Shown: one piece after another, positions 1 to 17,570 of the stretch | How the letters are laid out: the number at the start of each line of letters is the position of its first letter | How positions within the stretch are numbered: the first letter of the stretch is position 1 | Assembly: GCA_944329365.1 (NCBI GenBank) | Contig: CALVIC010000003.1 | Span: forward strand, 8,437-72,436 | Reading direction: 5' to 3' | Length of the DNA stretch: 64,000 nt | DNA from: an uncultured Bacilli bacterium | GTDB lineage: Bacteria; Bacillota_I; Bacilli_A; RF39; UBA660 | Program-made: the position numbers and the translations under genes | Notes under the pieces: generated by a model | The model's database searches: none | Seen by the model: the letters and a program-made list of their open reading frames with translations, nothing else | Told to the model about the DNA's origin: nothing

Positions 1-131
1 TACTACATTTAGAAGGTGAGAATAGAAATATGATGAAGGATTGTGATGCATGTGATGATATATTAAAATGTGCAAATGAAGCATATAGGAAGGCAAAACT
101 TAATGGTAAAAAATACCCCAAAATTTTATAA
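1..131 (+). CDS. 3' end of an ORF entering from the left edge, or a 33-aa Cys-rich micro-ORF starting at ATG 30; hypothetical
   Basis: Frame 3 is open from nt 3 to TAA at 129-131. ATG at 30-32 is preceded by AGGTGAG (14-20). Peptide is MMKDCDACDDILKCANEAYRKAKLNGKKYPKIL. No family recognised. Confidence 0.2.
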   Translation, partial: LHLEGENRNMMKDCDACDDILKCANEAYRKAKLNGKKYPKIL

Positions 132-257
132 AACATGTAAAAGAAAGAGACAAAAAGTTAAATAAAAAAATCAGTCATTATAGAGAGAATCGTCTAATAA
201 GTCTCAAAATAACTGATTTTATCATGTGTGTTAAGAGAAGAATATAATTGAATATAC

Positions 258-3200
258 TTAGCAAATGTTTTCTAATACTTTTTTTATAATTTCTAATGCA
301 TATTTTCTCTTCAACCTATGGTGAAAAGCTTGATTATTATAATTTCGTAGACAATTATAACAAGAAGTGTTTTCGTCACAACAATTCTGATTAACTTTGT
401 TTTTAGCACATTTAAATACTTCTATAAACATACTCTTATCCATGATTCTTTTTACATGGCCTGCTCCGCCAGGAACATTATCAAAAACAATTAAGTCATA
501 ATTATTATATTTATTCTTTACCACTAAACCATCTATGTCTTTCCTTTCAATAGAAAATTCTTGACTAATTCCTTCTAAAATGGCATATAAAGTGGATAAA
601 GCTTTATCTTTATCGTTTAGATTTTTAATTGATATTTTGGCAACATCTGTTTTAAATTTATGTCCTAATGAAATATGCCATAAATCTTCATCCGGACAAT
701 TAAATCCCTTGAAATCTACATGATTCATTTTTATTTTTTCACTTCCATATGCCGTTTTATCAATTTTTGTATATCCACACGTTTTACACATATAGAATGG
801 ATTTTTGTTGAGAATAAGCAATTCATCATCAGAGGATGTTTCAATTGTTATATAATTATTAGCACCAATCATTAATTTGTTTTCATCTTTTTTTCCGTTC
901 CCAATGTATGATGTCATTCCTGTATAAGTTTTTTTAGGTTTTTTCCTTGTACTTTCATTGGTTTTTCCTGTTTTAAATCCATATATTGGCTCAATAAAGA
1001 AGTTGTTAATAATTTCTTCGTTAGGTGCTTCACAATATTGACATTTCTTTAATTTTTCTGGAAATAAACTTATATTTTCTCTTTCGCAAAATGGACAAGT
1101 GTAATAATAATTTCTAGCAAATTCTTGTGTTTTTGGGAGAGAAATATATCTCGATGTATACTTTATTTTATCAACAATTATTTCTGATTCGGGTGCATAT
1201 TCTGAAATAGCTATACTTAAGTCTCTACTTAGATCATAATCATTATTTATTTTACCATTATCCCATATTTCTAAATTTACTAAATCTATTGGAAATCCAT
1301 ATTTTGGTATAACATTATATTTTGTTAAATTTTTTATTACACTATCTTTTTTTATTTCGTTTACTTGTGTTTGATAATAATCTGCATTTTTAAAATCATT
1401 TTCTTCTTTAGCTTTTTCTATTTCAAAATTATATTTATTTATTGTATCAATTATATTTGTGTAAAATCCTTCTAAATAATCTCCATTATTTTTTATTTCA
1501 TCTATCCATTTATAATCAGAATACTTATTATATGTATTTGAATCTAAAATTTTTGTATTAATAAACTCGTTCAGATCATCTGGATTTTGCTCAATATATT
1601 TTTTAAATTCCTTAATTCCGTCATGGCATACTAAACTATCAATATTTTTAAAATATTCTGGATACTTTCTAAAAAAATACCCAAATGCCGTTGCCATCAA
1701 GTGTCTTAAAATAATTTTTTCATTTGTATTATTAAATTTTGGAGGTTTTATTATTCCTGAAATCATTTTATTTGGATCATCGAAATATGTATAATCATGT
1801 GATGAATAACCACAATATGTTAGTATAAAAGCAGAACTATCTTTACTTCTTCCCGCTCTTCCCGCTCTTTGAACATAATTAGCAGGTGTAGGTGGAACAT
1901 TTCTCATAAAAACCGTTTCTAGTGAGCCTATATCAATGCCCATTTCAAATGTGGTTGAACAACTAAGAATATTTATTTTTTTATCTTTAAATTCTTTTTG
2001 ATATTCTTTTGCCGTTGCTTGTGATAATTGGGCGGTATGCTCTTTAATGTTGATTCTTTCTATTTTTTTAGTCTGATATTCTTTACGATAATAATTATTT
2101 TCAAATATTTTGTCAGGGTCACATTCTTTCAATATTCCATTACAATCCTTGTTTGTACAAACATTATGAACATTATATATTGTTAATTGACCACAATTTG
2201 AACATATATAGTATTGAGTATTTTTGTAGTTATCAAGTTTATATTTACTTGCAGATATTTGATAGACTTCATCACTTATTGAATTACCACTTTCACATAT
2301 ATTACCTTCTACTCCTATTTCATTAAAGATAATCTCTATAATATTACACGCTTCTTCGTGAGAACATTGAGCAACTTTCATTATATATTTTGTATACATA
2401 TTATCTCTGGATGAATAAACAGGTAATAAACTTCTTATATTATTATATTTAGTTTCAGTCTCATTTCTTTTGGATGATGGCTGCTTTTTTAACTTTATAT
2501 AATTATCAAATCTTCTATATGAAAGATATTCTTGTTTTTCAGAATTATTTAATCCAGAAATATTATATTCAATTGCGGGCGTAGTTCTAAAAATATTAAA
2601 TAATACATTAATAATGTTTTTTAAATCGGTTTTATTAATATTATATTTTCCAAATTCATTACTGATATCTTCTTCAGAAATTTCTTCAAAGAGATCATCT
2701 AAATCTAAGGTAAAGTGAAATAATCCTAATCCTTCAGCACTATAATTTCCGTCAATATTTAATAATTCATATAATGCCGTGATCCAAGCTTGTTTATTAC
2801 TTGATATTTTTTTGTTTGTGAACAAATTATATTTTCTAATTAAAGCATCTAATTGAGATAATAAATTATCAAATTTTATAGTTTGATAGTTATTATTTTT
2901 TATAATTTCCCATATTATTCTTTTTCTTAAAAATCTTTCATGGTTTCCTTCAAAAAAGCTTGCAAAAAAACTTGCTTGTTGTCTACTATCTGAAAAAGTA
3001 ATGAATTGTTTTACATATGGTTCTTTTGCCATTTTTAAAGTTTCGTTTCTCTTAAAAAGTACTGTTTTATAATCAGTTGTTTTTTCTGGTTCGTTGTTAT
3101 CAATGGCTTTGTATAATAATTGTGCTAGAATAGCTGTTGCTTCATCTTTTCCTATATTAATACTTCTTACTATTCCATTTTTTTGATGATGTAGACAATT

Positions 3201-4934
3201 AGGACATTCATTAATATTATTTTTCATGGAGTTAGATTTAACTTTGTAAACTGTTATTTTATATTTTTCGTCACATTTACATTTGTTATTATTTATTTTT
3301 TCAGAACTACATAGATAACCACACTTGCCACATAATTCATATTCTTCACAGTTGCTTTTATCAATATTTTCTGTTTCAGCACTATTTGGAATCATATAAT
3401 AATCTACTTCTTTTATTTTATTATCACCATAATTTTCATAAATATCAACATCATCATTTTTTCTTAAATAACCATCTATTTCTTTTCCAAAAAGGAACGA
3501 AGTATTACAATACCGACATGTACCAAGTTCAAATGTATTTAATTCATTTATCTTATTTGTAGGCGTCAAAGTTAAATATTTTTTCGGATCAATAGTAACA
3601 AATGCTCCAGATAAAGTTCTAATAAACGTATGATATTTTATATCATATAAATATTTATTATTCTTTTTTGCAACATTTATTAAATGAATTAATGAAACCA
3701 AATCTTGATCTTTATCAAAACCATTATCTTTTAGTTGTTTTATTATATCCTTAAATTGGCGATTTTTACTTGCTAGAAGATTATACAAATCATAAATGTT
3801 TTTATCTTTAATTAAAAGTTCATAGAGTATTCCCTCTATATCATTACTATTTGTTAATGTATATTTATGGGCAATGTTTTCTATTATATTTTTATTTTCT
3901 AAGTTTTCTTCTAATTCGCAATATATATCTGGATTTATTTGATATTCAATGTTTGAATCATCCAAATTTTTTCTAGTAGAAAAAATTATATCTGACTCCG
4001 AATAATTACTAGAAGTAAGTGATTTTGCAAATTCAATGATTGTTTGTTCATCTTTTCCCTTTTCACCTAATGTAGCACTAGTTAATATAAATTGCGGCTT
4101 TTTTTCAATTAGTCCAGTCAGTCTTTTTAGTAAATATGAAACTTCAATTCCTAAAGCCCCGCTATATGTATGTGCTTCATCTAATACAATAAATTTCCAA
4201 TGTCTCAAATATTCTTTATTAAAAATTTTAAAGTCGTTGGGTCTAATCAGGAGATATTCTAACATGGAATAATTTGTAAATAATAAGTGTGGAGGATTAT
4301 TTCTTATTTCTTCCCTACTTATTACCTCGTTTTGTGGTATTTTTGTGCCAAATTTTTTGAATAATTCTTCACGCGTGTTTTTATATTCTTCTTCTGTTTC
4401 TCCAGTAAAAAATCCAAATCTTATTTCAGTATAATTCATTAATATATTTCTTAGTCTATCCATTTGATCATTTACTAACGCATTCATTGGATATAATAGA
4501 ATAGCTCTTATTCCTGGCCCGTTATCTCCTTTTTCTATATCACGTAGTATTGAATTTAATATTGGATATAAAAAACTTTCTGTTTTACCTGATCCAGTGC
4601 CAGTTGTAATGACAACATTTCTACCATTTGTAATTTTTCTTAATGCTTGTTCCTGATGATAATATAATTTTTGATTAAAATCAATGTTATTAAGTTTTTT
4701 AAATAAAGGACTAACAGTTCCTTCCTCAATCAAATCATTAATTGATTTGGATGAAACAAATGGCAAGCTGATATTTAAAAAAGGACCTTTGTATAATACT
4801 TGTTTATCTAACTCCCTTTCAAACTCTGTTTTATATTCGTTATCTTTAAACGAAAATGTATCTTTTAAATATTCGCGAAATTCACTTTCAATGAATTTGG
4901 CTTCTTCTATAGGATTTAACTTTTTTTCTTTCAT
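258..4934 (-). CDS. Giant SF2 DExH helicase with a C-terminal DUF1998/MrfA-type zinc-binding domain (DruE-like)
   Basis: 1558 aa. Helicase motifs: motif I VVITTGTGSGKTESF, motif II FIVLDEAHTYSG, motif III LTSATLG, motif VI YVQRAGRAGRS near aa 1022. The C-terminus NVPGGAGHV...CCDENTSCYNCLRNYNNQAFHHRLKRKYA fits the DUF1998 signature. Several CxxC zinc-ribbon pairs are present. The ATG lies 3 nt after the stop of the upstream ORF. Confidence 0.6.
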   Translation of the reverse strand: MKEKKLNPIEEAKFIESEFREYLKDTFSFKDNEYKTEFERELDKQVLYKGPFLNISLPFVSSKSINDLIEEGTVSPLFKKLNNIDFNQKLYYHQEQALRKITNGRNVVITTGTGSGKTESFLYPILNSILRDIEKGDNGPGIRAILLYPMNALVNDQMDRLRNILMNYTEIRFGFFTGETEEEYKNTREELFKKFGTKIPQNEVISREEIRNNPPHLLFTNYSMLEYLLIRPNDFKIFNKEYLRHWKFIVLDEAHTYSGALGIEVSYLLKRLTGLIEKKPQFILTSATLGEKGKDEQTIIEFAKSLTSSNYSESDIIFSTRKNLDDSNIEYQINPDIYCELEENLENKNIIENIAHKYTLTNSNDIEGILYELLIKDKNIYDLYNLLASKNRQFKDIIKQLKDNGFDKDQDLVSLIHLINVAKKNNKYLYDIKYHTFIRTLSGAFVTIDPKKYLTLTPTNKINELNTFELGTCRYCNTSFLFGKEIDGYLRKNDDVDIYENYGDNKIKEVDYYMIPNSAETENIDKSNCEEYELCGKCGYLCSSEKINNNKCKCDEKYKITVYKVKSNSMKNNINECPNCLHHQKNGIVRSINIGKDEATAILAQLLYKAIDNNEPEKTTDYKTVLFKRNETLKMAKEPYVKQFITFSDSRQQASFFASFFEGNHERFLRKRIIWEIIKNNNYQTIKFDNLLSQLDALIRKYNLFTNKKISSNKQAWITALYELLNIDGNYSAEGLGLFHFTLDLDDLFEEISEEDISNEFGKYNINKTDLKNIINVLFNIFRTTPAIEYNISGLNNSEKQEYLSYRRFDNYIKLKKQPSSKRNETETKYNNIRSLLPVYSSRDNMYTKYIMKVAQCSHEEACNIIEIIFNEIGVEGNICESGNSISDEVYQISASKYKLDNYKNTQYYICSNCGQLTIYNVHNVCTNKDCNGILKECDPDKIFENNYYRKEYQTKKIERINIKEHTAQLSQATAKEYQKEFKDKKINILSCSTTFEMGIDIGSLETVFMRNVPPTPANYVQRAGRAGRSKDSSAFILTYCGYSSHDYTYFDDPNKMISGIIKPPKFNNTNEKIILRHLMATAFGYFFRKYPEYFKNIDSLVCHDGIKEFKKYIEQNPDDLNEFINTKILDSNTYNKYSDYKWIDEIKNNGDYLEGFYTNIIDTINKYNFEIEKAKEENDFKNADYYQTQVNEIKKDSVIKNLTKYNVIPKYGFPIDLVNLEIWDNGKINNDYDLSRDLSIAISEYAPESEIIVDKIKYTSRYISLPKTQEFARNYYYTCPFCERENISLFPEKLKKCQYCEAPNEEIINNFFIEPIYGFKTGKTNESTRKKPKKTYTGMTSYIGNGKKDENKLMIGANNYITIETSSDDELLILNKNPFYMCKTCGYTKIDKTAYGSEKIKMNHVDFKGFNCPDEDLWHISLGHKFKTDVAKISIKNLNDKDKALSTLYAILEGISQEFSIERKDIDGLVVKNKYNNYDLIVFDNVPGGAGHVKRIMDKSMFIEVFKCAKNKVNQNCCDENTSCYNCLRNYNNQAFHHRLKRKYALEIIKKVLENIC

Positions 4935-4937
4935 TTG

Positions 4938-7900
4938 CTACCTTCTTTCTACAATTAATAAACAAGAAAATATATCTGTTGCTCTATTACTTTCGATTTT
5001 ATCTAAAACTGTTCTATTGTCGAAGTCAATAAATAATCCATCACCATCTTTTGTAATACTTGCTTCTATAAGTCCATCGTTAATATCACTTGTAAAGTCA
5101 ATTTCTATCGGGTTTAAATTATTAAACATATGTTTTTGACCTTTTTTAAAAGTATAAATGTTTCCGATAAAATAAGTGTCACTTATTCTTTTTGTTATTT
5201 CAATATATGTATCATAAAGTTTATAGGTTTTGCGGGTAAAATTATTACCAATCATTTGATCAAAATCAACTGTATATATTTTAAAATACCTTCCAACAAA
5301 GTCGTCTAATGATATGTAAGAAAAATTTTCTTTATATAGAATTCTTTCTTTTCCTAATAATCCTGTTTTATCTTCTTTGATTAAAATTAAATATGTTTTA
5401 AATGAAGTTAAACCATTTACTATAAATTGTGTTTCACTACTTTCTATTTTTTTGTTAAAAATTATTTGTTTTTTTTCGTCTAATATCTCATAAGAGATAT
5501 TTCCTCGACCATAAATTGATACATTAGCTTTTAAATTCTTTGCTATTGGGTCATATTTTAAATTAGTTTTTTTTGCATTTACAAAACATTTGTTATAACA
5601 TTGTATAAGTCCTTTTACGTTATCTCCATCAAGAAATTTTAAATAAAAAATGTCTTCTTTATTATACGAAATTAACGTTCCTACATCCAATTCTTTACAA
5701 AATAAATTGTCTTTGGAATATAATGTTGTTAAAACTGTTCCATCTTTTTTTACTATATATACCTTATCATAAGCAATGCCATTTGTGACTATTTTACTTG
5801 AAAATTTAATATCTTTTGTCCAAATATATTCATTGCATCTTTTCCACATATTATTATCTATACGATATATTGGAATATTAATCGGAATTATAAATCCAAA
5901 CTCATATTTATCAAAATATATTTTATTTATGTCATTCGAATTTAAATTAATTATTTTTTCAAAAATATTTTTAGTAAAAGAAGTGCTTATTTTGACATAT
6001 AATTCATTATCAGAATATTCATCAACTAAGTAATTAAAGTCTTTGTCAACAACAACTTTAAAAACATTTGTTTTATACATTTGATTGTTTTTATGTTCCT
6101 CTATCGTAATCGTGTGAATGCCTTTTTTTAAATTGTTTATATTTATAACAAACTGCGTGCTTGCATTTTTATGTTTTTCAGTATAATTTAAATGTGTTAA
6201 TTTGTTTCTTACTCCATCTATATTTATAATGATATCATCACATGATAATTTTGTTTCATAGATTAAATATTTAATATACTTATAAATTTTCAACTTTTCT
6301 TTATTGTTGAAATAAAAAGCATTGGCTTCCACGCCGATTAAACCTGTTTTTTGTAGTGAAGAAAAACTAAATATATCATTACCAATTTTAACAGTATCTC
6401 CTTTTTTTACGTTTAAATATAAAATTTGATAATTTTTGTTTAGTAACTTATTTCTCCATGAATTTTCAATGTTAACACCATTAACGCAAAAAATAGCTAA
6501 GCCTTCATAGTCATTATTATTTTTGATTTCTCGTCCTTCTGAATTAAAAACAATATAATCTCTATATAATAAATTTTTACTATCATAAATGGTCTGATTT
6601 CCACATAATAACTTATATTCTAATTTTCCTAGAGGATTTTCAATCAATATATTCGAACATTCAATACGATATCCTCCTATAATATCGTATACATCCAAGT
6701 CTTCTTTTGAAATGATTTCATCACCATTTGAAATAACAAGTTTGAGTTTTGTATAATCATATGAGTTTTTTATTTTATGATTTGGTATTGATAAATAGAT
6801 ATTGGAACTATTTAGAAGAAATTTAGGCTCCCATCTTGATGATAATTCGATTTTTCGTTTGCTTTTCTCTTTAATCTCTTTGTTAACTTTTCTTTGCCAG
6901 ATTTCAAATCCGTAATTATAATATTTGTTATTTATAGAAGGAATTTGATTTTTCCAATAATATTCATCAATTATTTTCAAAACATTGCCACTTAATTTTA
7001 TTAAATCATTAATTCCTTTCTCATCAGTAATTAAATCTTTTGTTGTTTTAATTAATTTGTATGTTTTGTTTGTTACTTTTAAATCGATTTGATCATTTTC
7101 AAAATTATTCCCCTTAATTCCCTCATAAACAAATAATAATTCTTCTGATAAGTTTGTTTTTTCGGATATTGAATAATCAAAGTTTAGTTTATAAACATCA
7201 TATAAAAAATCAAAAAATGATGGCAAGTATTTTTGAGGTACTATGTCATTCTTTAATACAACCGAAATTATTCTTTCAGTTATTTCTTTTTGAGTATTAT
7301 ATATACTAATAATATTTCTAATTTGTCCTTCTATTTTTTGCTCTGAAAAATTATTATATATATATTTATAGATTTTTCTAACATGGTTGTAAAAATTTCC
7401 GTCATAATTAATTAATCCAATTATCGTCAAAGAAATAAATATAATGTCATAATCTATATCATATATTGAGCATTTGGTTTGCAATAATGACTGCAATTCT
7501 TCTTGTGCTTTATAGTGTATTTTATTGACTAATTTTGCATCATTAATTATATCTATTATGTCATTTCCTATTATTTCGTTATTTTTTAATTTGTACTTAA
7601 TTAGCCTTAGTTTTTTTAGATTACCATTTTCATATAATATTTCTTTAAAAGATAATATGATTTCTTTTTGTTCTTCTTTGCTCAAATAATTGTCTTTTAA
7701 GTATTTATCAATTATTTCATTAACTTTTGAAAAAAATGAATTTTCTAAATTTGATTGATTATTTTTTAACCATTTCTTTAATTTTATAATTTCTTGAAAA
7801 TTAATGATATCATCTGCTTCAATTCCTTGGATTATACCAATTAGTTCACTTTCATTATCTATTTTATTTTTAATATTATTATAATAGTTAGTAAACTTAA

Positions 7901-8111
7901 TTATTTTTTCTTTTTCTTGATTTGTTATTAAGTTATCTTTTAAAATTTGATTTAACAATTTTATAATTTTAATACAATAAATATTATTATCATTGTTGTT
8001 TTCTGTGATCCATTTTTTTAACATTTGAATTTCTTTTTCATTTATAATATTATCGTAATTTATTGAATTTAAGATTCCAAGTAATTCAGAAAATTTATTA
8101 TAATACTTCAT
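4938..8111 (-). CDS. Large protein of unknown function; DruH-like by size and position only
   Basis: 1057 aa. The N-terminus has two ~58-aa helical repeats (aa 17-73 and 97-155). The rest is Asn/Lys/Ile-rich and looks beta-rich. No catalytic motif recognised. GGGAG RBS about 10 nt upstream of the ATG. Stop TAG at 4938-4940 lies 3 nt before the helicase ATG. Confidence 0.4.
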   Translation of the reverse strand: MKYYNKFSELLGILNSINYDNIINEKEIQMLKKWITENNNDNNIYCIKIIKLLNQILKDNLITNQEKEKIIKFTNYYNNIKNKIDNESELIGIIQGIEADDIINFQEIIKLKKWLKNNQSNLENSFFSKVNEIIDKYLKDNYLSKEEQKEIILSFKEILYENGNLKKLRLIKYKLKNNEIIGNDIIDIINDAKLVNKIHYKAQEELQSLLQTKCSIYDIDYDIIFISLTIIGLINYDGNFYNHVRKIYKYIYNNFSEQKIEGQIRNIISIYNTQKEITERIISVVLKNDIVPQKYLPSFFDFLYDVYKLNFDYSISEKTNLSEELLFVYEGIKGNNFENDQIDLKVTNKTYKLIKTTKDLITDEKGINDLIKLSGNVLKIIDEYYWKNQIPSINNKYYNYGFEIWQRKVNKEIKEKSKRKIELSSRWEPKFLLNSSNIYLSIPNHKIKNSYDYTKLKLVISNGDEIISKEDLDVYDIIGGYRIECSNILIENPLGKLEYKLLCGNQTIYDSKNLLYRDYIVFNSEGREIKNNNDYEGLAIFCVNGVNIENSWRNKLLNKNYQILYLNVKKGDTVKIGNDIFSFSSLQKTGLIGVEANAFYFNNKEKLKIYKYIKYLIYETKLSCDDIIINIDGVRNKLTHLNYTEKHKNASTQFVININNLKKGIHTITIEEHKNNQMYKTNVFKVVVDKDFNYLVDEYSDNELYVKISTSFTKNIFEKIINLNSNDINKIYFDKYEFGFIIPINIPIYRIDNNMWKRCNEYIWTKDIKFSSKIVTNGIAYDKVYIVKKDGTVLTTLYSKDNLFCKELDVGTLISYNKEDIFYLKFLDGDNVKGLIQCYNKCFVNAKKTNLKYDPIAKNLKANVSIYGRGNISYEILDEKKQIIFNKKIESSETQFIVNGLTSFKTYLILIKEDKTGLLGKERILYKENFSYISLDDFVGRYFKIYTVDFDQMIGNNFTRKTYKLYDTYIEITKRISDTYFIGNIYTFKKGQKHMFNNLNPIEIDFTSDINDGLIEASITKDGDGLFIDFDNRTVLDKIESNRATDIFSCLLIVERR

Positions 8112-8237
8112 TTTATAATACTCCCATCACACAAACACTTCTCATAATACATTTATTATACAATGAATCGTTATTATTTTATATATTTTCAATAGAAATT
8201 ATTGCTTTTTTTCAACCAGTGTGTTATAAATAATTTT

Positions 8238-10730
8238 TTATTTTAAACATTTCATTATTTTTTCTTCGTCAGGTATTTCATCTGTTTTGCATCTTATTAA
8301 TGGAAGACAAGCTTTTTCAAATATTTTATTTTTTAACTCATCATTATGAACTTGATGAATATTTTCTTTGTTAAATGGATTATGATAACCACCATCTACT
8401 TCGATGGCTAAACGATATTCAGAAGATGCTCTATCATATATTAAAAAGTCAACATGGGAATGAATGTTCTTTTTGAATTTCATTTCTTCTTTTGTTAGTG
8501 AATCTAAGTCTTCAATGATTTCATCTAATGGTACATGAGTTATGATATCATAACCATCTATATGATTTTTGTTTAATATTTTTAATAATTCTTCATAAAA
8601 TATATCTTCACTTATAATTCCTGTCCTTTTAGCTATTTTTTGTCTTTCTCTATAATACTCTTTATATAGCAAATCAAAACAACTGTGTAGTTTACTGTTT
8701 ACTATTTTACCATCTTGATACTTTATGTACTTAATTAGATCTTGGATATTACCATTTGTATTAGTTATGGCAGAGTCATTGACTACTAGAATAAACTTAT
8801 TTATAGCTCTTGAAACAACAACATTTAATCTATTAGGTTGATCAGTAAAACTCTTGATTTTATTGTCGACACTTGAAAATATAATTATATTTTTTTCTCT
8901 TCCTTGAAATTTATCTACTGTGTCAGCCTGAACGTTAGAATAGTTTTTGAATTCTTGTTTTAATAGATTACTTTGATTTACATATGGAGAAATAATACCA
9001 ATCGATTCATCATTATATGTTGAAGGAAGTATTTCTTCTCTGATTATATCTAATTGTCTTCTATTTACGTGATCTCGAGCGTGGTTACCAACGCTTGTAA
9101 CATACATTTGTAATGTATCTTTAGATGGTTTTGAATTAGATAAAATAATTAATTCATTATTATAAAATTTTAAGTTACAAAAGTTTATTATTTTTGGATT
9201 GCACCGGTAATGTTCTTTTAACATAGTTTTGGTTATATCAGGATAAAGTTCTATAACTGAAGATAATAGGTTATGATTTCGATAACGATATTCGTTTGAT
9301 ATTTTATACTTTAACCAGATTTGATCACTTGTAATGGCATTTTCATTTGTAACAACGTTGGATAGCTGTTTTAAATCACCAACAATAACAACATTTTTCG
9401 CACATGATAGTGATAATACCGCAGTTACTAAGTCTACCTGTGATGATTCATCGACAATTATATAATCATACATAATATTTTTTGATAAGCTTGATACTAA
9501 AGAATAGGTTGTACTTAAAATAACAGGATAATCTTTAAGAAACTCATTTGATATTCTTTTTAAATCAGATTTTTCATATTTATTTCGCTTAGCCTTTTTA
9601 TATCTTTTGGCAAGTCTATGTTTAAATATTTGCATCGATATTTCTGTATAATGTTTCATTTCTTCTTTAATATTATAGTTATTTAAACTTGTTTTTAATC
9701 TGTTAATTTCTTTTGTTAGATTAGTAATACTTTTTTTATAATAAAGATTTTTTAATTCTAAAATTATATCATTTAAGTTATTGTCAAAAATATCAAATGG
9801 TAAAAGTCCATATTTAATAAAATATTTTATTTTTGAATATATAGAGATTGTCGATTTGTTTTCTAATTCAAGCCATAATTTTAGTATGTTTTTATAATTT
9901 GGATTACGCCACCATTTTATAGTAATATTTTTTGTTCTTGTTTTATAATATTTTGTAAATTGTTTTGATTCTAATTTTATGGCTTCTAGATGCTGAATAT
10001 CTTTGGCAAGTTTATTTTGATCTTCTAGTTTTCTATTTAACTCATATTCTTTATTGTTTAGAAAATTTATTTTGTTTTCAGCTTCTTCATCAGTTAGTAA
10101 CCATGCATCTAAGTTTGGTAAATCTTTTTGATTTTCAATAAATTCTGTTTTGTTTTTTTCTTTGCCAAGAAAAGCAACCAGAAAATCTAAATTATTGCTT
10201 TTTAACTTATCATAAACATTTTGAATAGCTGCATTATTATTGGAAACAACGGCAACCGTTTCTCCATTCATAACTAAATTAGAAATAATATTTAAGATTG
10301 TTTGAGTTTTTCCTGTTCCTGGAGGACCTTCTATAACGCTTATTCTATTTGTAATTGCTCTTTCTGTAGCCAGTTTTTGGCTTTGATTAAAGCCGAAGGG
10401 AAACCTTACATGTCTAACCATTCTATATGCTGGTGGTAAAGTACCTTTTAAATAACAATTTAAAATACTATCTTTATTTAAGTTATCTAACTTTTTATAT
10501 CTTGAACCAAGAACATTATATTCACCAACCACTATGCTTATTTTTTCAGCTAATTCTTTAAAATATTTTAGATTGTTTTCAAAATTATTGTTTTCTATTT
10601 TTATTCTTTCATTTGAATAATTATATTGTTTATCACTGCTTTTAAATTTAATAATATAGTTTTTATTATTTAATTTTATACTTTCAATCTCTTTTGTTTT
10701 ATCTACATCGTCAATTAAAATTCTTCTCAT
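8238..10730 (-). CDS. SF1 (Upf1/DNA2-like, COG1112-type) helicase fused to a C-terminal DUF559/Vsr-like restriction-endonuclease-fold domain
   Basis: Helicase motifs: Walker [14 protein letters not shown], motif II YIIVDESSQVD, VVIVGDLKQL, EHYRCNPKI, DKFQGREKNIIIFS, LNVVVSRA. The C-terminal ~130 aa contain HVDFLIYDR...YRLAIEVDGGYH. The ORF-track start at 10736 is TTG. ATG at 10730 with GGAG 7 nt upstream is preferred. Confidence 0.65.
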   Translation of the reverse strand: MRRILIDDVDKTKEIESIKLNNKNYIIKFKSSDKQYNYSNERIKIENNNFENNLKYFKELAEKISIVVGEYNVLGSRYKKLDNLNKDSILNCYLKGTLPPAYRMVRHVRFPFGFNQSQKLATERAITNRISVIEGPPGTGKTQTILNIISNLVMNGETVAVVSNNNAAIQNVYDKLKSNNLDFLVAFLGKEKNKTEFIENQKDLPNLDAWLLTDEEAENKINFLNNKEYELNRKLEDQNKLAKDIQHLEAIKLESKQFTKYYKTRTKNITIKWWRNPNYKNILKLWLELENKSTISIYSKIKYFIKYGLLPFDIFDNNLNDIILELKNLYYKKSITNLTKEINRLKTSLNNYNIKEEMKHYTEISMQIFKHRLAKRYKKAKRNKYEKSDLKRISNEFLKDYPVILSTTYSLVSSLSKNIMYDYIIVDESSQVDLVTAVLSLSCAKNVVIVGDLKQLSNVVTNENAITSDQIWLKYKISNEYRYRNHNLLSSVIELYPDITKTMLKEHYRCNPKIINFCNLKFYNNELIILSNSKPSKDTLQMYVTSVGNHARDHVNRRQLDIIREEILPSTYNDESIGIISPYVNQSNLLKQEFKNYSNVQADTVDKFQGREKNIIIFSSVDNKIKSFTDQPNRLNVVVSRAINKFILVVNDSAITNTNGNIQDLIKYIKYQDGKIVNSKLHSCFDLLYKEYYRERQKIAKRTGIISEDIFYEELLKILNKNHIDGYDIITHVPLDEIIEDLDSLTKEEMKFKKNIHSHVDFLIYDRASSEYRLAIEVDGGYHNPFNKENIHQVHNDELKNKIFEKACLPLIRCKTDEIPDEEKIMKCLK

Positions 10731-10864
10731 ACACAAACTCCATTACTTTCTTAGTATATCATAATAAAAATAAAACACCAATTTTGATATGATGTTTTGA
10801 ATATTATATTAATTAAAATTTATATGATAAAAAGATTATATTCTAATTAAAGAATTTTTTCTTT

Positions 10865-13800
10865 TTAAATTTCTGATAATTCTTTACTAATTTCTCTCAT
10901 TGAACCAATTTGCTTTGAAAACATTTTATCCCATGCATCTAAACATTTTACTATTATATCTTCTTGATTAGTTTCATACACAGCATCAAATAATTTTATT
11001 ATGAGATAATTTAAATCATTATATTTATAATAATGTGATGATGGATTGTTTATGTCATATTGTTCTATAGTGATATTTATAACGTTAAATATTAAATCAC
11101 TATATTTAATAACGTTGTTAAATTTCTTTGTTAAAATATGAATAAATTTCTCTATAAATTCCTGTGAATCTAATGTTTTAAGTAATTCTATAATAAACTC
11201 ACTATCTTCCGATAAGCTTAATCCATTTTCTCCAAACAATTTATATGGATTTATTCTAACATCTTTGTATGTCGCAAATATTTTTATGATTTGTTTTATT
11301 TTCTCTTTATATTTATCGTATTTTATGTAAACCAATAACATGTCTATAACTGATTCTTTTATGATTTTATCATTACTCTTATTTAATATATCATCTTCGA
11401 ATTTACTATAAAAAAGATAAAAATCAACGAGTAGATAAGAATAAATTCTTTTTATATATTCACTATTAATATTTATTCCATGTAAAATTATTTTTATTAT
11501 GTCTTCTTTATAAGTTACACTCTTTTTGTATATAAAATGAAGAATATTCCTACTTGAATTATATCCATAAATATAATCATTAGAATATAGAGAAATTATA
11601 TTTCTGCTTGCAAAATCAAAATCATATTTTAAAAGCCAGCTTAAAATCGTCATACTTGAATATTTGATAACTTCATCTTTTGACATAATCATATCTTCAG
11701 CTACTTCAATAAATTCACTTGCATATTTTAAACTGTTTGATAATATATTACCAATGGCTGAGGCAAGCTTATAAATAGACGAATTTATTACTTTCACTTC
11801 TAATACTTCAGCTTTATCTCTATAACCATTATCGTTATCAAGAATATAATTACTATCAATTTTATTTTCTTTTATATCACTATATATTTGCATTAACATT
11901 TTTATTGTTCCTTTGTTCCAATTGACTTCTTCTTTTTTAGCAATGATTTCACAAATAAATGGTGCATATTTGTAATTGTCATTATATTTAAAAGTATTAA
12001 ATAGTATTTCCAACTTATCAATAGAAATCTCATCCAATACATTAGATGAAGCTAATGTGCTATATAATGTAATAACATATTCCGTAATAATAACAGAAGA
12101 ATTTATTATAAACAAGTCAATAAATGCATTAGGATTTTGCTGTATATTTATTGATAATGACGACTGAAATTCATATAAACTTCTATCTATGAATACGCCT
12201 TTTTTGCTATCATATATAGATTCATGATTATTTATTATTTTTTTATTTGTTAATATTTTAAGCCAACTTTGCATACTAATTTCTTTGTCCGCAATTGGTG
12301 ATATAACACTGCCATATTCAAAATGTTTTAAATCAAAAATCGAAAATTTTATATTATAAAATTTTCTATTCAAGACTTGTTTTAGCTGTTGAGCTTTGCT
12401 ATTTAAATATTTATCAGGTATTACATTTAATATTTCATATTGAAAATCTCCCCAATAGCTTATATAATTAGCATTACTGAAATCTTTTTTCTTTAGTTCA
12501 ATACCTTTTTTACATCTTTCAATTATATCTTCTGGCTTATAATTTATAACATTAGTCATCATTTTGTCTAAGGTATCTTTGTCAATATGATTTATAAATT
12601 TTTTTATTATTTTTTTTAGTATACTTATTGACTGTTTTTCTTTGCTAGTATATTCAAAACAGTTATTATTAATATCATTAAATAAATAACTAATTACTTC
12701 ATTTGCAGCTTTTAATGGCATACATAAAAATCCATATAAAATCAACTCATTACAAATATAAAATCCTTTATTAAGATAACACTTAAATAACTTCCAAAAT
12801 TCTTTATAGTCTGTCTCCACTATATTTTTAGTTGCTTCTTTTAACAATGAAATTATAATTCTCTGGACTGTCACTTCATTCCAATCATTGTTATTCCAGT
12901 CGTATAAATTAAACTTTTCTTTTGTTTTTGGAATTAATGGTAATAATGTATTAATAATTGTTATATTTTCTTTAACATTATGTTTTCCTTCATAATCAAT
13001 AAGATGCTTTTCAGAATATATTATATTTTGCTTTTTTAATTGCAGATGTTTTCCTAAAAATTCAATATATTTAATAGCTCTATATTCATTACATTTTATT
13101 AGTTCATCCAAATCCAAATATGAATTTATTAATAAATCGCTATACTTTTCATATATTTTTAAGCGTAGTTTGAATAATTCGTCAGTATCATATACTACGT
13201 CAATAGGTAATACTTCATATAATTCTTTATCAATTTGGTTATCTATAAAAAGATATTTTTTTATGAAATTTGTTTCAATTTTGTCATAATTATGATTAAT
13301 ACTTTTTAATAAATCAATCACATATTTTTTCTTTAAATGGTCTTGAATCCATTTATCAAAAACTCCGTTCGTTATTAATAGTTCAATCATTTCTTGATGA
13401 TTCATAAAGACTGTGTTTATAAAAATTTCAAACAAAGCTTTTTTATTATAATTATCAAGTATATATTGTTTGATTTTACCAGATAAATTCGTAGAAAGTC
13501 CTAACACTTCAAATGCAACATACTTCATATATGTTCGAATATTTTTACTATTAATAATTGAGTTTATACAATTCAAAAATTTCTCATCATCAATTTCATA
13601 TATTCGTTCTAAAAACATCTGTAATTGATATCTCTTATTTGGTAATTGCTTATTATAATCACCTATAAGAGATTCTATTGGTTTTTCTTCAAAATACTCT
13701 TCTATCATTTTTTCTACTGAAAAATAATCTAATAAACTTTGATGAGAAAAGGATATCATATTATCACTGCGTATTAAAAATGATTGTGAAAGTAAAAATT

Positions 13801-15400
13801 CAATAGAATGAGTATAATTACTTAATAAAAACTCTGGTAATGATATTTTACCTAATTTATTCATTTTATTAACTATTTCATTTTTTAAATTCGATAAATT
13901 GCATTCAGAAATACCTTTTTTTTCTCCTTCTTTTATAAGCTGTTGCCACCAGCTTGATATTAAATCACAGGTTGTACGAATGCCAGTTATATCATTTTCT
14001 TTTTTTATTTTCATAAAGATAAATAAATTGCTCGGAATTTTCAATAATTTTTTTAATTTAGAATTATAATTTTTATATTCTGGTCCAACAATAGAATTTA
14101 CGCAATCATCATTTAAACTATTAATATTGATTTTGACCCAGTTTTTTCTATTCTTTTCTATCATTCCTATAAACGACGGGTCGTTTTCAACATCAAAAGT
14201 TCTGCATACTAATATAATAGAAATTTTAATTTTTCTATCAAAATTGATATTTCTAATTTCTTCAATAATATCATTGCAAATATCTATGGAACTTCGACTA
14301 TGTATAGTAGTCCATCTTAATGCATCTAATTGATCAAATATTAAAACACATTTTTTGTTATTTGAAAATTTATCTAAAATTGTTGAAAGATATGTAGAAA
14401 ATCCTAATTTTTTACTCCATTCTAAACTATTATATTCTGGCATATATTTATCTAATTTAATTGCTAAATATTGATAGTCATTGGTTTCTAAGAAATTAAT
14501 TAATCCATATATTATTCCACTTTTACCATATCCTGCTTTGCCTGATATCATGATTGATTTTTCGTTATTAATGTTTGCAATTATATTTTCTAATTCTGGT
14601 CTATTTATATAATTATTATTTATTAATTTTATGCTTTCTTTAAATTTTTCATTTAATCTTTTTATAATATTAAAATTTGAGTCATCATTAGCTAGAGTGT
14701 TTAAAAGCATTTTATTTGTTTTAAAAAAAGAATACAAAAATGATTTGTCAATCTCTTTACCCATTATATCTTCGTTACATACCAAATCCACAATTTTTCT
14801 ATAGTTATCTTTTGGGTTTCCATGAAATAGCATCTTAATTTGCATTAATATGAATTCTGTTATTGTATCATCAGGCATATTATTTACTTCTGTTCTTCGA
14901 AGATAATCCATTGCTTTTTTAACGTCTTCCATATTATTGTAATCAAGTTCAAGTTCATGACAATATTTTTTAAAATCAGAAAAAGTTGTTGTGCTTTTTT
15001 TTATCTGCTCATTATAAAATAATTTAACATCTCCATTGTTGTTTTTTGCTCTGCTTATTAAATCTGATAGACTTATAAAGGATATTGGAGATTCAAGAAC
15101 TACAACATTATCTTTAGACCTGTCTAAGTGAAATTTCCATTTTTTTAGTAAATCGTAGGATTTTAGTCCAGAAAAAGTCCAATTATTATTACTTCCATTA
15201 CGAAATTTACACTGAATATATTTTTTAGTACCATCAAAATTTGTAATGACTATATCAGTTGCTACTTCGTTATCACCTAAGCCTTCAAACATACAGCTAC
15301 TAACTTTTTCTTCAACAACATCTAATAATGACTTTATAATGCAATTTCTTTCATATCTATTTCCTAATTTATCTGCCCTTCCAGCTGGTTCACTAGCCAT
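10865..15400 (-). CDS. Nuclease-NTPase-repeat giant: N-terminal Cap4/DUF4297-like PD-(D/E)xK nuclease, central P-loop STAND-like NTPase, about 1000-aa alpha-helical repeat C-terminus (Avs-like)
   Basis: 1511 aa. N-terminus reads LGNRYERNCI...FEGLG...ATDIVITNFDGTKKYIQCKF. Walker A ISGKAGYGKSG (aa 286-294). Walker B-like CVLIFDQLDAL. The remainder is leucine/isoleucine-rich helical sequence. AGGAGG RBS upstream of the ATG. Confidence 0.55.
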   Translation of the reverse strand: MASEPAGRADKLGNRYERNCIIKSLLDVVEEKVSSCMFEGLGDNEVATDIVITNFDGTKKYIQCKFRNGSNNNWTFSGLKSYDLLKKWKFHLDRSKDNVVVLESPISFISLSDLISRAKNNNGDVKLFYNEQIKKSTTTFSDFKKYCHELELDYNNMEDVKKAMDYLRRTEVNNMPDDTITEFILMQIKMLFHGNPKDNYRKIVDLVCNEDIMGKEIDKSFLYSFFKTNKMLLNTLANDDSNFNIIKRLNEKFKESIKLINNNYINRPELENIIANINNEKSIMISGKAGYGKSGIIYGLINFLETNDYQYLAIKLDKYMPEYNSLEWSKKLGFSTYLSTILDKFSNNKKCVLIFDQLDALRWTTIHSRSSIDICNDIIEEIRNINFDRKIKISIILVCRTFDVENDPSFIGMIEKNRKNWVKININSLNDDCVNSIVGPEYKNYNSKLKKLLKIPSNLFIFMKIKKENDITGIRTTCDLISSWWQQLIKEGEKKGISECNLSNLKNEIVNKMNKLGKISLPEFLLSNYTHSIEFLLSQSFLIRSDNMISFSHQSLLDYFSVEKMIEEYFEEKPIESLIGDYNKQLPNKRYQLQMFLERIYEIDDEKFLNCINSIINSKNIRTYMKYVAFEVLGLSTNLSGKIKQYILDNYNKKALFEIFINTVFMNHQEMIELLITNGVFDKWIQDHLKKKYVIDLLKSINHNYDKIETNFIKKYLFIDNQIDKELYEVLPIDVVYDTDELFKLRLKIYEKYSDLLINSYLDLDELIKCNEYRAIKYIEFLGKHLQLKKQNIIYSEKHLIDYEGKHNVKENITIINTLLPLIPKTKEKFNLYDWNNNDWNEVTVQRIIISLLKEATKNIVETDYKEFWKLFKCYLNKGFYICNELILYGFLCMPLKAANEVISYLFNDINNNCFEYTSKEKQSISILKKIIKKFINHIDKDTLDKMMTNVINYKPEDIIERCKKGIELKKKDFSNANYISYWGDFQYEILNVIPDKYLNSKAQQLKQVLNRKFYNIKFSIFDLKHFEYGSVISPIADKEISMQSWLKILTNKKIINNHESIYDSKKGVFIDRSLYEFQSSLSINIQQNPNAFIDLFIINSSVIITEYVITLYSTLASSNVLDEISIDKLEILFNTFKYNDNYKYAPFICEIIAKKEEVNWNKGTIKMLMQIYSDIKENKIDSNYILDNDNGYRDKAEVLEVKVINSSIYKLASAIGNILSNSLKYASEFIEVAEDMIMSKDEVIKYSSMTILSWLLKYDFDFASRNIISLYSNDYIYGYNSSRNILHFIYKKSVTYKEDIIKIILHGININSEYIKRIYSYLLVDFYLFYSKFEDDILNKSNDKIIKESVIDMLLVYIKYDKYKEKIKQIIKIFATYKDVRINPYKLFGENGLSLSEDSEFIIELLKTLDSQEFIEKFIHILTKKFNNVIKYSDLIFNVINITIEQYDINNPSSHYYKYNDLNYLIIKLFDAVYETNQEDIIVKCLDAWDKMFSKQIGSMREISKELSEI

Positions 15401-15695
15401 ATTTTACCTCCTACAGCAAAAGATAGTATAGTATTATGTTATCTTGTGCGTCATAATAGTTAATAAGTTTATCTGATTTTTTTAAATAATCTTCACTATG
15501 CCATAATATTGTTTTATAAAAGATAAACTGAAATCATCTAATATTTCTCATTTTTTACAATATTTATTTTTATCTATAACTAAAAAACGCAGCACAAAAA
15601 CATAAAGCCTGTACTAGCGCTCTTTTATATATAATATAATATTTTAGAACTGATTGTCAGATAAACTAATGAATTTATCAAAAAAAATTATGATT

Positions 15696-17570
15696 TTATT
15701 GATTAATTTTACTTTTAAAATAATATTGTAATTTTTTGTTTGTACAGTACACATAACAACCTTTCATTCCTCTTGTCATAAGTGTTCTATATGTGTTTTT
15801 TATAATTTTATCTGCTATTTCATTTGCTACCTCTTGTCCTTGCTCTTTTGCAATTTTATGTATTCCTTTCAATGATTGATCAGTTTTAGCTCTTTTTGTA
15901 TAATCAGTAACAATATGACCATCTTCATACCTAATATCATCCCCAATTATTACTCCAACATAATCAAATTCTAATCCCTGACAAGTGTGAATACAACCAA
16001 CTTCATTTACTGATGTTGAATCAATTGCCCAGGTTTGAGAATTACCTAAATTCCAGCTCATTTCAAAATTATATTCTGGGATTACTATATCGTGAACATT
16101 AGAATTATTTTTACCATTGCTAATCCAATTCCAACAATATCCTGCAACCAATCTTGATTTATTATTTATTTTATTTTTTTCTTCTATTAATCTTCTTAAT
16201 TCATTTGGATTATCTATTACTTTAAAATCATAATCAAAATCCATACCATCGAAGTTTGCTGTTTTTCTTATTTCTAAAACGTTATCTAGCCAAGCAAGAT
16301 AACCATCTGACCCATTACATCTAAATTGACTTTCTAATTCAACTACTTTAATTCCGGCGTTTAATTCTTTAGCAAATTTTTTTATTTCATCTACTGACCC
16401 AATATCTTTTAATGTAACTTTTTGGTCTTCATCAATGAAAAATATTGAAAAATTTGAAGCATTAATAATTTCTTTAATTTGATTTTCTCCTAGATTTTGG
16501 AACATTCCTGATTTTGCATTTAATCTATGTGCTTCATCGACAATTAAGCAATCAACTTCATTGCTTTCGGCTTCTGTAAAATTTCCTGAACCTTGAAATA
16601 AATTGTTAATATATGACATTTTGAAAGAACCTTTTAATTTATCTCTAAATACTGCTCTTGGAGCAGCGTTCTTTGTTACATAAAAACATGTCATATTTCG
16701 GCTAGTAAGTTCTACTAATAAGTTAATTGCTAAAACTGATTTTCCAGTTCCCGGTCCTCCTTGTACTACCAATACATTTTTCTCATTTGCAGATAAAGTA
16801 TCGATTGCCATTCTAATAGCATCTTCATAAATGACCTTTTGCTCATCAATCATATTAAATTCTTTGTTGCCCTGTAACATTTTTGTAAGAGAGTCTTGAA
16901 GTCGTTTTGATGGTCTTATTTTTCCATTTTCAATTTTATATAGAGTTTCTCTATCGTCTCCTTCAAGAATATATTTTTTTATAAAATTTCTTAATTTTAT
17001 AAAATCATTTGCTCCAAACATAGGTGCTTCATTTATATATTCTTGATATTGACTACTACAAATCGGGTCATCTTTACTTAATACATAGTTATGTAAAAAG
17101 GCACAAGGATATAGGCCTATATCTTCTAATTGTACAGTTTCATTAAAATCTCTAATTAAATTTGCATAACTCATAGCTTGATAGGAAGGATGAGTCACTT
17201 CTCTTATGGCATGGCCAGTAAATGTTGAAACTATTCCGTCTTTACCTTCAACTGCTTCACATTTTTCCCACTGCTTTAATTCTATAATAATAACCGAATT
17301 TTTTTTATTTTTATCTCTTCCTGATAAAATAAAGTCTATTCTTTTAGATGTTGTTGGAATATTAAATTCGATTGCTACACCTGCATTATCTGGTATTTCT
17401 TTGTCATCTAAGACTCCTCTCATATATTGCATAGAATTCTTCCAAGAATTTAATTGGGGATCACTTGCTCTTCCAAAATACTTTTGATACTTTTCATATA
17501 TTTTATTTACAATTAAATTTAAATTTACATCATTAATGAATCCTGATTTTACTCCTTCATACACCAACAT
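15696..17570 (-). CDS. DUF2075 family protein (Schlafen-group-III-like ATPase/helicase with an N-terminal nuclease-like module)
   Basis: 624 aa. The N-terminus is typical of the family: SWKNSMQYM...IEFNIPTTSKRIDFILSG...VIIIELKQWE. Walker A VVQGGPGTGKSVLA, Walker B CLIVDEAHRL, then FFIDEDQKV. AAGGAG RBS. Start lies 28 nt after the MazG stop. Confidence 0.75.
   Translation of the reverse strand: MLVYEGVKSGFINDVNLNLIVNKIYEKYQKYFGRASDPQLNSWKNSMQYMRGVLDDKEIPDNAGVAIEFNIPTTSKRIDFILSGRDKNKKNSVIIIELKQWEKCEAVEGKDGIVSTFTGHAIREVTHPSYQAMSYANLIRDFNETVQLEDIGLYPCAFLHNYVLSKDDPICSSQYQEYINEAPMFGANDFIKLRNFIKKYILEGDDRETLYKIENGKIRPSKRLQDSLTKMLQGNKEFNMIDEQKVIYEDAIRMAIDTLSANEKNVLVVQGGPGTGKSVLAINLLVELTSRNMTCFYVTKNAAPRAVFRDKLKGSFKMSYINNLFQGSGNFTEAESNEVDCLIVDEAHRLNAKSGMFQNLGENQIKEIINASNFSIFFIDEDQKVTLKDIGSVDEIKKFAKELNAGIKVVELESQFRCNGSDGYLAWLDNVLEIRKTANFDGMDFDYDFKVIDNPNELRRLIEEKNKINNKSRLVAGYCWNWISNGKNNSNVHDIVIPEYNFEMSWNLGNSQTWAIDSTSVNEVGCIHTCQGLEFDYVGVIIGDDIRYEDGHIVTDYTKRAKTDQSLKGIHKIAKEQGQEVANEIADKIIKNTYRTLMTRGMKGCYVYCTNKKLQYYFKSKINQ

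Follow-up and report, generated by a model that had tools for sequence, protein, structure and literature searches.

A two-gene locus was analysed computationally near the start of a 64,000-nt window of DNA from an uncultured Bacilli bacterium (contig CALVIC010000003.1 of assembly GCA_944329365.1, positions 8,437 to 72,436). The upstream gene of the operon (4938..8111, minus strand) encodes, from an ATG start, a 1057-aa protein of an uncharacterised family, here called the partner. The gene that follows (258..4934, minus strand), also with an ATG start, encodes a compact, YprA/MrfA-like superfamily 2 (SF2) helicase of 1558 aa that belongs to the DruE family. The two open reading frames (ORFs) meet at a coupling junction (4932..4950, minus strand) in which the purine-rich stretch AGAAAGAAGG at 4950-4941, resembling a ribosome-binding site (RBS), lies within the last codons of the partner gene and is followed by the stop codon TAG at 4940-4938, the trinucleotide CAA and the helicase start codon ATG at 4934-4932, with 3 nt between stop and start. 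A first-pass annotation of the same DNA had given the ORF coordinates, the 3-nt gap and the placement of the RBS in the upstream coding sequence exactly, leaving unstated that the strand is the minus strand. It had also proposed that the two genes form one unit, in agreement with the coupled junction here and with the direct succession of the two genes in 38 of the 40 related loci for which downstream sequence is available. Chance origin is impossible for both ORFs, since they run uninterrupted for 3.2 and 4.7 kb at about 24% G+C, and full-length homologues of partner and helicase number in the hundreds each. About 125 nt past the helicase stop a convergent plus-strand ORF is reached, so that the unit here ends with the helicase gene. 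An intergenic stretch of 126 nt (8112..8237, minus strand) upstream of the partner gene contains a TATAAT hexamer and a GGGAG Shine-Dalgarno sequence and is possibly the pair's own, putative promoter; a scan for promoters and terminators was uninformative in this A+T-rich DNA, with 104 sites against 100 expected.

The helicase carries a full set of SF2 motifs, each of which was located as the first-pass annotation had listed it. The RecA1/DEAD domain (aa 93-291; 4062..4658, minus strand; Pfam DEAD 3.2e-27) contains Walker A GSGKT at 114-118, DEAH at 252-255 and SAT at 286-288, and the RecA2/Helicase_C domain (aa 955-1030; 1845..2072, minus strand; Pfam Helicase_C 3e-15) contains motif VI, QRAGRAGR, at 1022. 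Between them lies an insertion of about 660 aa (aa 292-954; 2073..4061, minus strand) with CxxC motifs at 473, 535, 577 and 911. This insertion is the place of the family-specific helical and zinc-binding modules, within which we infer the individual sub-domains. The domain scheme of defensive YprA helicases, which includes multiple zinc modules and an MZB domain, was taken from section 7 of PMC12458937, and the eight CxxC motifs of the window helicase, together with its MZB domain, match that description. The MZB zinc domain (aa 1450-1529; 348..587, minus strand; Pfam MZB 8e-10) is equivalent to DUF1998, which had been predicted earlier from the GGAG signature. It contains GGAG at 1489 and CYNC at 1525, the residue at which the C-terminal signature CYNCLRNYNNQAFHHRL (CYNC...HHRL) starts. 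The protein ends 29 residues after the MZB domain, at residue 1558, and thus lacks tandem C-terminal PLD-like domains; PADLOC and Pfam scans likewise gave no PLD match.

Druantia systems are defined by the helicase DruE plus variable partners, and accessory genes include DruA-D in type I and DruM, DruF and DruG in type II. All seven PADLOC DruE models match the window helicase, among them DruE1 (4.5e-181, 603 bits), DruE3 (1.6e-160, 535 bits), DruE2 (1.5e-124) and DruE4 (5.7e-101). The DrmA (74.8 bits), DpdJ and SngC models align with generic RecA parts only, SngC at 109 bits over the RecA1 region alone. A profile search of both proteins had been suggested with the first-pass annotation; with the PADLOC models of DruE, DruH, DrmA and SngA, DruE was the only identity supported. 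The best solved-structure matches are 9tu7 (DruE-like, 1.5e-75) and 9wae (3.7e-37), both helicases of about 2000 aa, with the solved MrfA/YprA structure 6znp (6e-20, 74 bits) falling far below the DruE scores. The NCBIfam model TIGR03817 reaches 120 bits against a cut-off of 874. The YjiV_N domain (PF27116) is precomputed for close homologues of the helicase and is found also in DruE proteins linked to DruH. The PADLOC DruE scores, the ranking of solved structures and the common YjiV_N domain make assignment to the DruE family secure.

Within that family, the helicase stands outside the typed DruE subfamilies. On DruE3 models, bona fide type III DruE proteins reach 2180 and 2692 bits, and on DruE1 they reach about 550-570 bits, while the window helicase scores 535-603 bits on both, its best score of 603 bits being far under the own-type scores of the former. 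A neighbour-joining tree was built on 1404 shared columns from a set that did not include sequences of Druantia types I, II and IV. In this set the helicase is 47-64% identical to its Bacillota relatives, 28% to untyped cyanobacterial DruE-like proteins and 21-23% to DruH-linked DruE, and the three groups form separate clades.

The partner family is real and large, with 93 full-length homologues at 30-47% identity; a profile search brought in 304 representatives of clusters at E<=1e-30, and 2380 when the limit was set at E<=1e-3. The partner itself matched no family in Pfam, NCBIfam or PADLOC, even with permissive thresholds (NCBIfam none at E<=0.01). Its AlphaFold2 model, built on a 73-sequence alignment with a mean pLDDT of 83.9, is helical over aa 1-413 and all-beta from 430 to 1057 as assigned by DSSP. 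The N-terminal part begins with two tandem four-helix repeats of about 80 aa each (aa 1-165; 7617..8111, minus strand), recognised both from an internal duplication and from the model helices H2-20 to H145-176. The duplication is real, as residues 8-71 align with 88-152 at 42% identity (E 2e-12), and the repeats noticed in the first-pass annotation are thereby confirmed. The repeat module is optional; many relatives are about 900 aa long and begin near residue 160, and others carry different N-terminal extensions. The repeat matches phrog_3989, a phage protein family of unknown function (2.5e-20), so that this accessory module has phage-encoded relatives. The repeats had been described earlier as TerB-like, with Shango as a lead. 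Shango consists of the TerB-domain protein SngA, the ATPase SngB and the helicase SngC. This identity was rejected, as neither Pfam nor PADLOC gave a TerB or SngA match for the partner and 25 relatives, the Foldseek search with the N-terminal part was empty, and the repeat matched phrog_3989 only.

The repeats are followed by a conserved all-alpha core (aa 166-415; 6867..7616, minus strand), defined from invariant columns, entropy and the model. Seventeen of the 25 invariant columns of the partner family fall within aa 181-405, the core invariants including D305, Y307, N310, K349, Y351 and T357, and the windows of lowest entropy are 282-311, 223-252 and 345-374. Beyond the core, DSSP on the model and Foldseek delineate about seven Ig-like beta-sandwich domains (aa 430-1057; 4941..6824, minus strand). 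By entropy per region, the helical core and first beta domain are the most conserved parts and the central beta domains, aa 589-935, the least. Structure prediction and a Foldseek comparison had been proposed for this protein. With the full model, searches of the PDB and BFVD returned only tandem immunoglobulin (Ig) or fibronectin type III (FN3) arrays with E of 1e-5 to 1e-6 and TM no higher than 0.14, such as those of NCAM2, CSF-1R, contactin and phage structural proteins. With the N-terminal 425-aa model there was no significant PDB match, none at E<0.1 and the best at E 0.13.

To establish whether the partner is DruH, it was compared with known representatives. In the reference E. coli type III locus (L048; loci used for comparison are designated by L and a number), which adjoins Zorya II and ARMADA II, DruH (1119 aa, 'STY4851/ECs_5259 family') and DruE (2104 aa) overlap by 1 nt. 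Eleven PADLOC DruH models match E. coli DruH and three match Chryseobacterium DruH; no PADLOC DruH model matches the window partner or its Clostridium butyricum relative. Precomputed YjiT_N and YjiT_2nd domains are present in all but one of 44 DruH relatives, down to 21% identity, and in none of the 93 partner homologues; the YjiT evidence comes from precomputed annotations only, as the Pfam model set that was scanned contains no YjiT models and leaves E. coli DruH itself unmatched. BLASTP of the partner against E. coli DruH gave no match, the partner profile gave negative bits with the E. coli and Chryseobacterium DruH sequences (-3 for E. coli DruH), and a profile-profile comparison by hhalign, with 73 sequences for the partner family and 31 for the DruH family, put the probability at 0.2%. 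Identity of the partner with DruH was therefore rejected at the sequence level, BLASTP, profile-sequence, hhalign, PADLOC, NCBIfam and precomputed YjiT comparisons all being negative. The partner model also lacks a C-terminal helical domain such as DruH has, and the DruE encoded beside every bona fide DruH examined is 1958-2104 aa long, never compact. DruH's C-terminal domain is reported to contact DruE in P. aeruginosa and to form a pocket for single-stranded DNA (ssDNA) and ATP in E. coli DruH. Structure searches with DruH gave ICAM/NCAM-type Ig domains (10.64898/2026.05.13.724313), and the NCAM-like Ig arrays matched by the partner in Foldseek are of the same kind. DruH itself did not come up among the matches in the collections of solved structures. 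The partner is thus without detectable sequence homology to DruH, and deep homology is conceivable. The earlier remark that no motif ties the partner to DruH stands after every DruH model and profile comparison run.

Conservation of the pair was examined by a scan for partner-family loci with one genome per species. It gave 47 loci, whose labels are of Bacillota type (Lachnospiraceae, uncultured Bacilli, Erysipelotrichaceae, Oscillospiraceae, Christensenellaceae, Veillonellaceae, Succiniclasticum, Haloplasmataceae and Atopobacter) with the sole exception of L018, a contig labelled Duodenibacillus. A DruE homologue follows the partner directly in 38 loci, the contig ends in 7, and 2 are exceptions, so that in 38 of 40 loci with downstream sequence partner homologues do lie beside DUF1998 helicases, their absence from such a position having been named earlier as an observation that would speak against the pair. 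The DruE alignment is near full-length in 36 of the 38 paired loci, and the junction varies between -53 and +16 nt, the commonest arrangement (20 loci) being an overlap of 4 nt. The identities of the two proteins to the window copies co-vary (Spearman rho = 0.77), and the partner diverges more than DruE in every case, 27-44% against 41-64% identity; DruH is likewise reported to diverge faster than DruE (PMC13192584). A reverse search from DruE found two further genomes with the partner family directly upstream. Plasmid pNPD4_2 of Clostridium butyricum carries the pair by itself, with a tannase gene on one side and small unknown genes on the other, and no other gene is conserved around loci with the short form of the helicase described below. 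The tight linkage across loci, the solo occurrence on pNPD4_2 and the lack of any other conserved gene indicate that the pair is a self-contained module. It is widespread in gut and rumen Bacillota, relatives of the helicase numbering in the thousands and clusters of the partner in the hundreds. A Logan contig with an identical partner ends inside druE.

The helicases of these loci fall into two length classes, 26 loci having a short form of 1555-1589 aa, as in the window, and 11 loci (L010, L011, L013, L016, L024, L027, L028, L029, L033, L039 and L046; for example L013:13201-20066) a long form of 1691-1720 aa. The C-terminal extension of the long form, about 150 aa, gave no Pfam match and no PDB sequence match with a profile; judged by eye, it is a candidate for a degenerate domain of the Vsr/DUF559 type. 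In all 11 long-form loci, and in no short-form locus, the helicase stop is followed, at a distance of about 10 nt or less, by a third gene, which encodes a protein of about 570 aa that joins a NERD (PD-(D/E)xK) domain to a superfamily 1 (SF1) helicase. This strict co-occurrence suggests that the extension docks the nuclease-helicase.

Two loci have the partner without DruE. In L035 (Succiniclasticum metagenome-assembled genome, 10010-21945), the partner carries a UvrD/GajB-like helicase at its C-terminus, in a fusion protein of 1716 aa, and is followed by bona fide DrmA (782 bits), DrmB (280 bits) and a NERD-UvrD protein homologous to NERD-SF1. This single locus shows that the partner family can also accompany a DISARM-type split YprA helicase. 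In L036 (Atopobacter phocae ATCC BAA-285, 1575-4712), an orphan partner of 1045 aa, 26% identical to that of the window, lies among ABC-transporter and LysR genes, with no helicase within 10 kb downstream. A short-form pair (915-aa partner and 1563-aa DruE) was also found on the viral-classed IMG/VR contig UViG_3300045988_182345 (L053:1-21125), where it adjoins a large serine integrase, a ParB-like gene and a pair of HNH endonuclease and ATPase genes, and is probably cargo of an integrative element.

The genomic setting of the window locus is also that of a mobile or defence region. Positions 1-20,000 have 22-28% G+C, against 28-36% beyond, and a tRNA-His gene (20241-20316, minus strand) borders the low-GC stretch with its 3' end facing it. 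The first 20 kb or so look like a tRNA-linked defence island that extends past the window start; no integrase was found within the window. Directly upstream of the pair, 126 nt away, lies a gene (8238-10736, minus strand) for an 832-aa SF1 helicase (AAA_11/AAA_12, Upf1/IGHMBP2-like) with a C-terminal DUF2726 domain, which partially matches Mokosh MkoA/MkoC and PDC-S37 models. The product of the next gene (10865-15400, minus strand) is 1511 aa long, contains a P-loop (GKAGYGKSG) at about residue 290 and matches the PADLOC candidate PDC-M54A weakly (2.3e-11). Pfam and NCBIfam place it in no family; the gene may be one for defence that encodes a large NTPase of STAND-like type. On the Logan contig L062 the same 1511-aa gene precedes an 830-aa helicase. 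Both upstream genes were considered and rejected as obligatory parts of the system, being absent from nearly all related loci. Further upstream are a 624-aa Schlafen group 3/DUF2075 helicase (15696-17916, minus strand; Pfam 2.6e-107) with weak AbiO, Nhi and PDC-S41 matches and, just past the tRNA-His gene, a 1059-aa protein with an N-terminal SWIM-type zinc finger and an SNF2-family helicase, assigned by eye (20372-23551, minus strand). A 105-aa ORF directly upstream of the Schlafen helicase gene on the same strand is MazG-like by eye, and a MazG-like gene also occurs near the pair of L060. The neighbours of related pairs include HNH, NERD, McrBC-like, PLD-SNF2 and serine-integrase genes. TypA shares 66% identity with its Listeria and Bacillus counterparts, which places the host among the low-GC Bacilli.

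From this evidence, it is highly probable that the locus is a Druantia-class defence module. It is likely, with somewhat less assurance, that it is a self-contained two-gene anti-phage module of a distinct Bacillota lineage, in which a nuclease-less DruE is combined with a partner that occupies the place of DruH without detectable DruH homology. Probably it represents a new subtype within a known system of phage defence, and not a system of a new kind. Several points weigh against this interpretation. A defence function of the clade is predicted from homology and context, searches with PADLOC, Pfam, NCBIfam and N-terminal Foldseek showed no recognisable nuclease or other effector domain in either protein, and the partner occurs without DruE in L035 and L036. 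Published DruH mechanisms are not directly transferable, because the partner is without the DruH C-terminal helical domain. The published roles also conflict, DruH being described as an exonuclease, an ssDNA binder or a sensor, and the PLD domains as essential or dispensable.

An alternative, judged unlikely, is that the locus is a plain Druantia III-B system, with a compact PLD-less DruE and a true DruH orthologue beyond sequence detection that would process or bind 3' ssDNA and license DruE. The gene order, partner size and start/stop coupling are as in the E. coli DruH-DruE locus, the alpha-helical N-terminal part, the Ig-like array and the Foldseek matches of the partner are akin to those of DruH, the published description of III-B is that of a PLD-less DruE plus DruH, and its nuclease-less/Vsr-like helicase branch could match the short and long forms found here. 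Against this, the partner is hit by zero DruH models in PADLOC against eleven for E. coli and three for Chryseobacterium DruH, by nothing in NCBIfam at E<=0.01 and by hhalign at 0.2%, with no YjiT domains in 93 homologues; nor does it have the C-terminal helical domain, and bona fide DruH was always seen beside a DruE of 1958-2104 aa. A different and rather doubtful idea is that the partner family is a previously unrecognised, portable companion module of YprA-family immune helicases, evolutionarily independent of DruH, whose all-alpha core would have a new DNA-end-processing or sensing activity and whose chassis would be compact DruE, DruE plus NERD-SF1, or DrmA/DrmB. Partners made of an alpha part plus an Ig array would then have arisen at least twice by convergence.

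It is improbable that the pair is part of a larger unit in which the upstream SF1 helicase-DUF2726 gene (PD-(D/E)xK-type; 8238-10736) is a third component that supplies the nuclease, as NERD-SF1 might. This gene lies 126 nt away on the same strand, a 40%-identical gene is directly upstream of the L008 pair, a NERD-SF1 helicase gene directly follows DruE in 11 of 11 long-form loci, and SF1 helicase-nuclease genes lie beside the system in L035 and L060. A relative of the 832-aa protein was nevertheless present in only 2 of 28 loci with >=3 kb of upstream sequence, the second (L025) being a weak match downstream of DruE, and the C. butyricum plasmid has the pair without it. Defence islands often contain helicase-nuclease proteins encoded by a single gene, so that adjacency may be coincidence, and the intergenic region has a TATAAT and a Shine-Dalgarno sequence of its own. 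The chance is very slight that the locus encodes no immune system but a housekeeping helicase for DNA repair, of the MrfA/YprA type, together with an accessory protein. The YprA/MrfA core and MZB domain are common to both. Clustering with such housekeeping helicases had been named in the first-pass annotation as an argument against a defence role, yet the window protein scores 74 bits against solved MrfA and 603 against DruE. It has a 660-aa zinc-motif-rich insertion and, from its homologues, a YjiV_N domain typical of DruE, and no MrfB-like exonuclease partner; the distribution is patchy, and the contexts are a low-GC tRNA-adjacent island, a plasmid and an integrative element.

For the preferred two-gene Druantia-class module, a mechanism can be sketched by analogy, although as a whole the steps below are speculative and can be given only limited credence. 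Recent work on type III Druantia (2026) describes a DruE that binds ssDNA or junctions and unwinds in the 3'-to-5' direction. The DruE helicase of the window may similarly load on intermediates of phage replication or recombination, at single-stranded regions or at duplex-ssDNA junctions, and unwind them 3'-to-5', driven by ATP. The partner would be a specificity or activation subunit and would act upstream, as a sensor or by binding or processing DNA. The helical core, which is conserved, and the first beta domain would engage the helicase and/or DNA, and the variable Ig-like array would recognise an infection cue. Unwinding by the helicase would then block phage replication. As neither protein has a recognisable nuclease domain, immunity could come about through unwinding or sequestering phage DNA, through a cryptic nuclease activity in the helical core of the partner, or through recruited (host) nucleases. 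The three-gene sister form would hard-wire the nuclease as the NERD-SF1 helicase, so that DNA destruction there would be carried out by the NERD-SF1 protein. Defence by the E. coli type III system is reported to be unaffected by deletion of both DruE PLD-like domains (10.64898/2026.05.12.722862), which suggests by analogy that DruE remains functional without its PLD domains.

Both the family of the helicase and the two-gene logic were known before. New with respect to the DruH models tried and the literature consulted are the partner family, its optional N-terminal modules, the three-gene form with NERD-SF1 and the link to DrmA/DrmB. The annotation models tried were PADLOC 2023, NCBIfam 2026 and the Pfam YjiT domains, and pipelines built on them would probably not report a complete system, as only the helicase is recognised. 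The 2026 studies disagree on the roles of DruH and of the DruE PLD domains. The window lineage, abundant in gut and rumen Bacillota, offers a natural experiment, its helicase having no PLD domains and its partner no DruH C-terminal domain. If the pair protects, the core of Druantia immunity would be a helicase with an alpha/Ig-array partner and not the PLD nuclease or the C-terminal pocket of DruH. The three-gene form, in which the DruE extension is always accompanied by NERD-SF1, hints at how a nuclease effector is attached and makes the docking hypothesis testable.

Among known systems, MrfA/YprA-MrfB has in common with the locus the SF2 core, OB/connector and MZB zinc domain, which are the ancestral fold. 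The repair helicases MrfA/YprA are about 750 aa long without large insertions, and MrfB is their exonuclease partner. The window helicase, in contrast, is twice as long, has large zinc-rich insertions and a different partner, and lies in a mobile or defence-island context. With DISARM the locus has in common a YprA-family helicase with a DUF1998 module, and the partner family lies upstream of DrmA/DrmB in L035. It differs in that helicase and DUF1998 are in one polypeptide, which scores 75 bits on DrmA against 603 on DruE, and in that the four upstream genes scanned include neither a PLD nuclease nor a methylase; the first-pass annotation had correctly reported both DISARM companions as missing. 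In PADLOC scans of the partner and the next three upstream genes no match was found to models of DruA-D, DruM, DruF or DruG, and none of these genes is conserved in related loci.

Also comparable are the untyped DruE-like systems on cyanobacterial plasmids of Tolypothrix PCC 7712 (L050:2513-13351) and Pseudanabaena ABRG5-3 (L051:3376-13252). Their helicases (2123 and 2082 aa) reach about 770 bits with the DruE1 model and about 720-745 bits with DruE3, and upstream of them are an 855-898-aa coiled-coil protein (with a weak JetC-like match in L050) and one or two unknown proteins of about 300 aa. Like the window locus, these systems combine generic-level DruE1 and DruE3 scores with a partner outside all defence models, and their helicases are, at 27-29% identity, the closest on plasmids outside the Bacillota clade. 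Unlike the window locus, they have longer helicases, and their partners are unrelated to DruH or to the window partner family.

The locus also resembles Druantia type III. The two-gene architecture of that type, a partner of about 1000 aa with a coupled druE and nothing else conserved, is present here, and a DruH with YjiT_N and YjiT_2nd directly upstream of druE is not. Type III-A DruE proteins are about 2000-2100 aa long and carry two C-terminal PLD-like domains. As in III-A (E. coli ATCC 8739/EDL933 and P. aeruginosa), the window genes are co-directional and coupled, a partner of about 1000-1100 aa preceding the DruE helicase. The helicase has YjiV_N, DEAD, Helicase_C, multiple zinc modules and MZB, with Walker A and DEAH at nearly the same residue numbers; the partner consists of an alpha-helical N-terminal part and an Ig-like array and diverges faster than the helicase, and the loci are found in defence islands and mobile elements. 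Unlike III-A, the window helicase is only 21-23% identical, about 500 aa shorter and without tandem PLD-like domains, the partner resembles DruH/YjiT neither in sequence nor in profile and is without a helical domain at the C-terminus, and the hosts are Bacillota, against mostly Proteobacteria for III-A. Of the first-pass proposal of a divergent type III (DruH/DruE)-like system, the DruE-family helicase was upheld, while identity of the partner with DruH was not supported and the PLD domains of type III-A are absent. The alternative offered there, a new two-gene variant, is the best fit to the evidence.

The III-B or 'type III-like' branch (Bell et al. 2025, PMC12458937; representative GIH50614.1) is characterised by a compact DruE without PLDs plus DruH, its helicases mostly lacking a nuclease domain and occasionally carrying a Vsr-type C-terminal domain. 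By this description, the window locus is similar in having a compact PLD-less DruE with one partner, and the short and long forms fit the nuclease-less and Vsr variants. The helicase is compact as described for the branch, with 1558 aa in a clade of 1555-1589 aa, or 1691-1720 aa where the non-PLD extension is present. The three-gene form with the NERD-SF1 helicase is a point of difference, being absent from the texts consulted. On the same descriptive basis, the locus may lie within the little-described type III-B.

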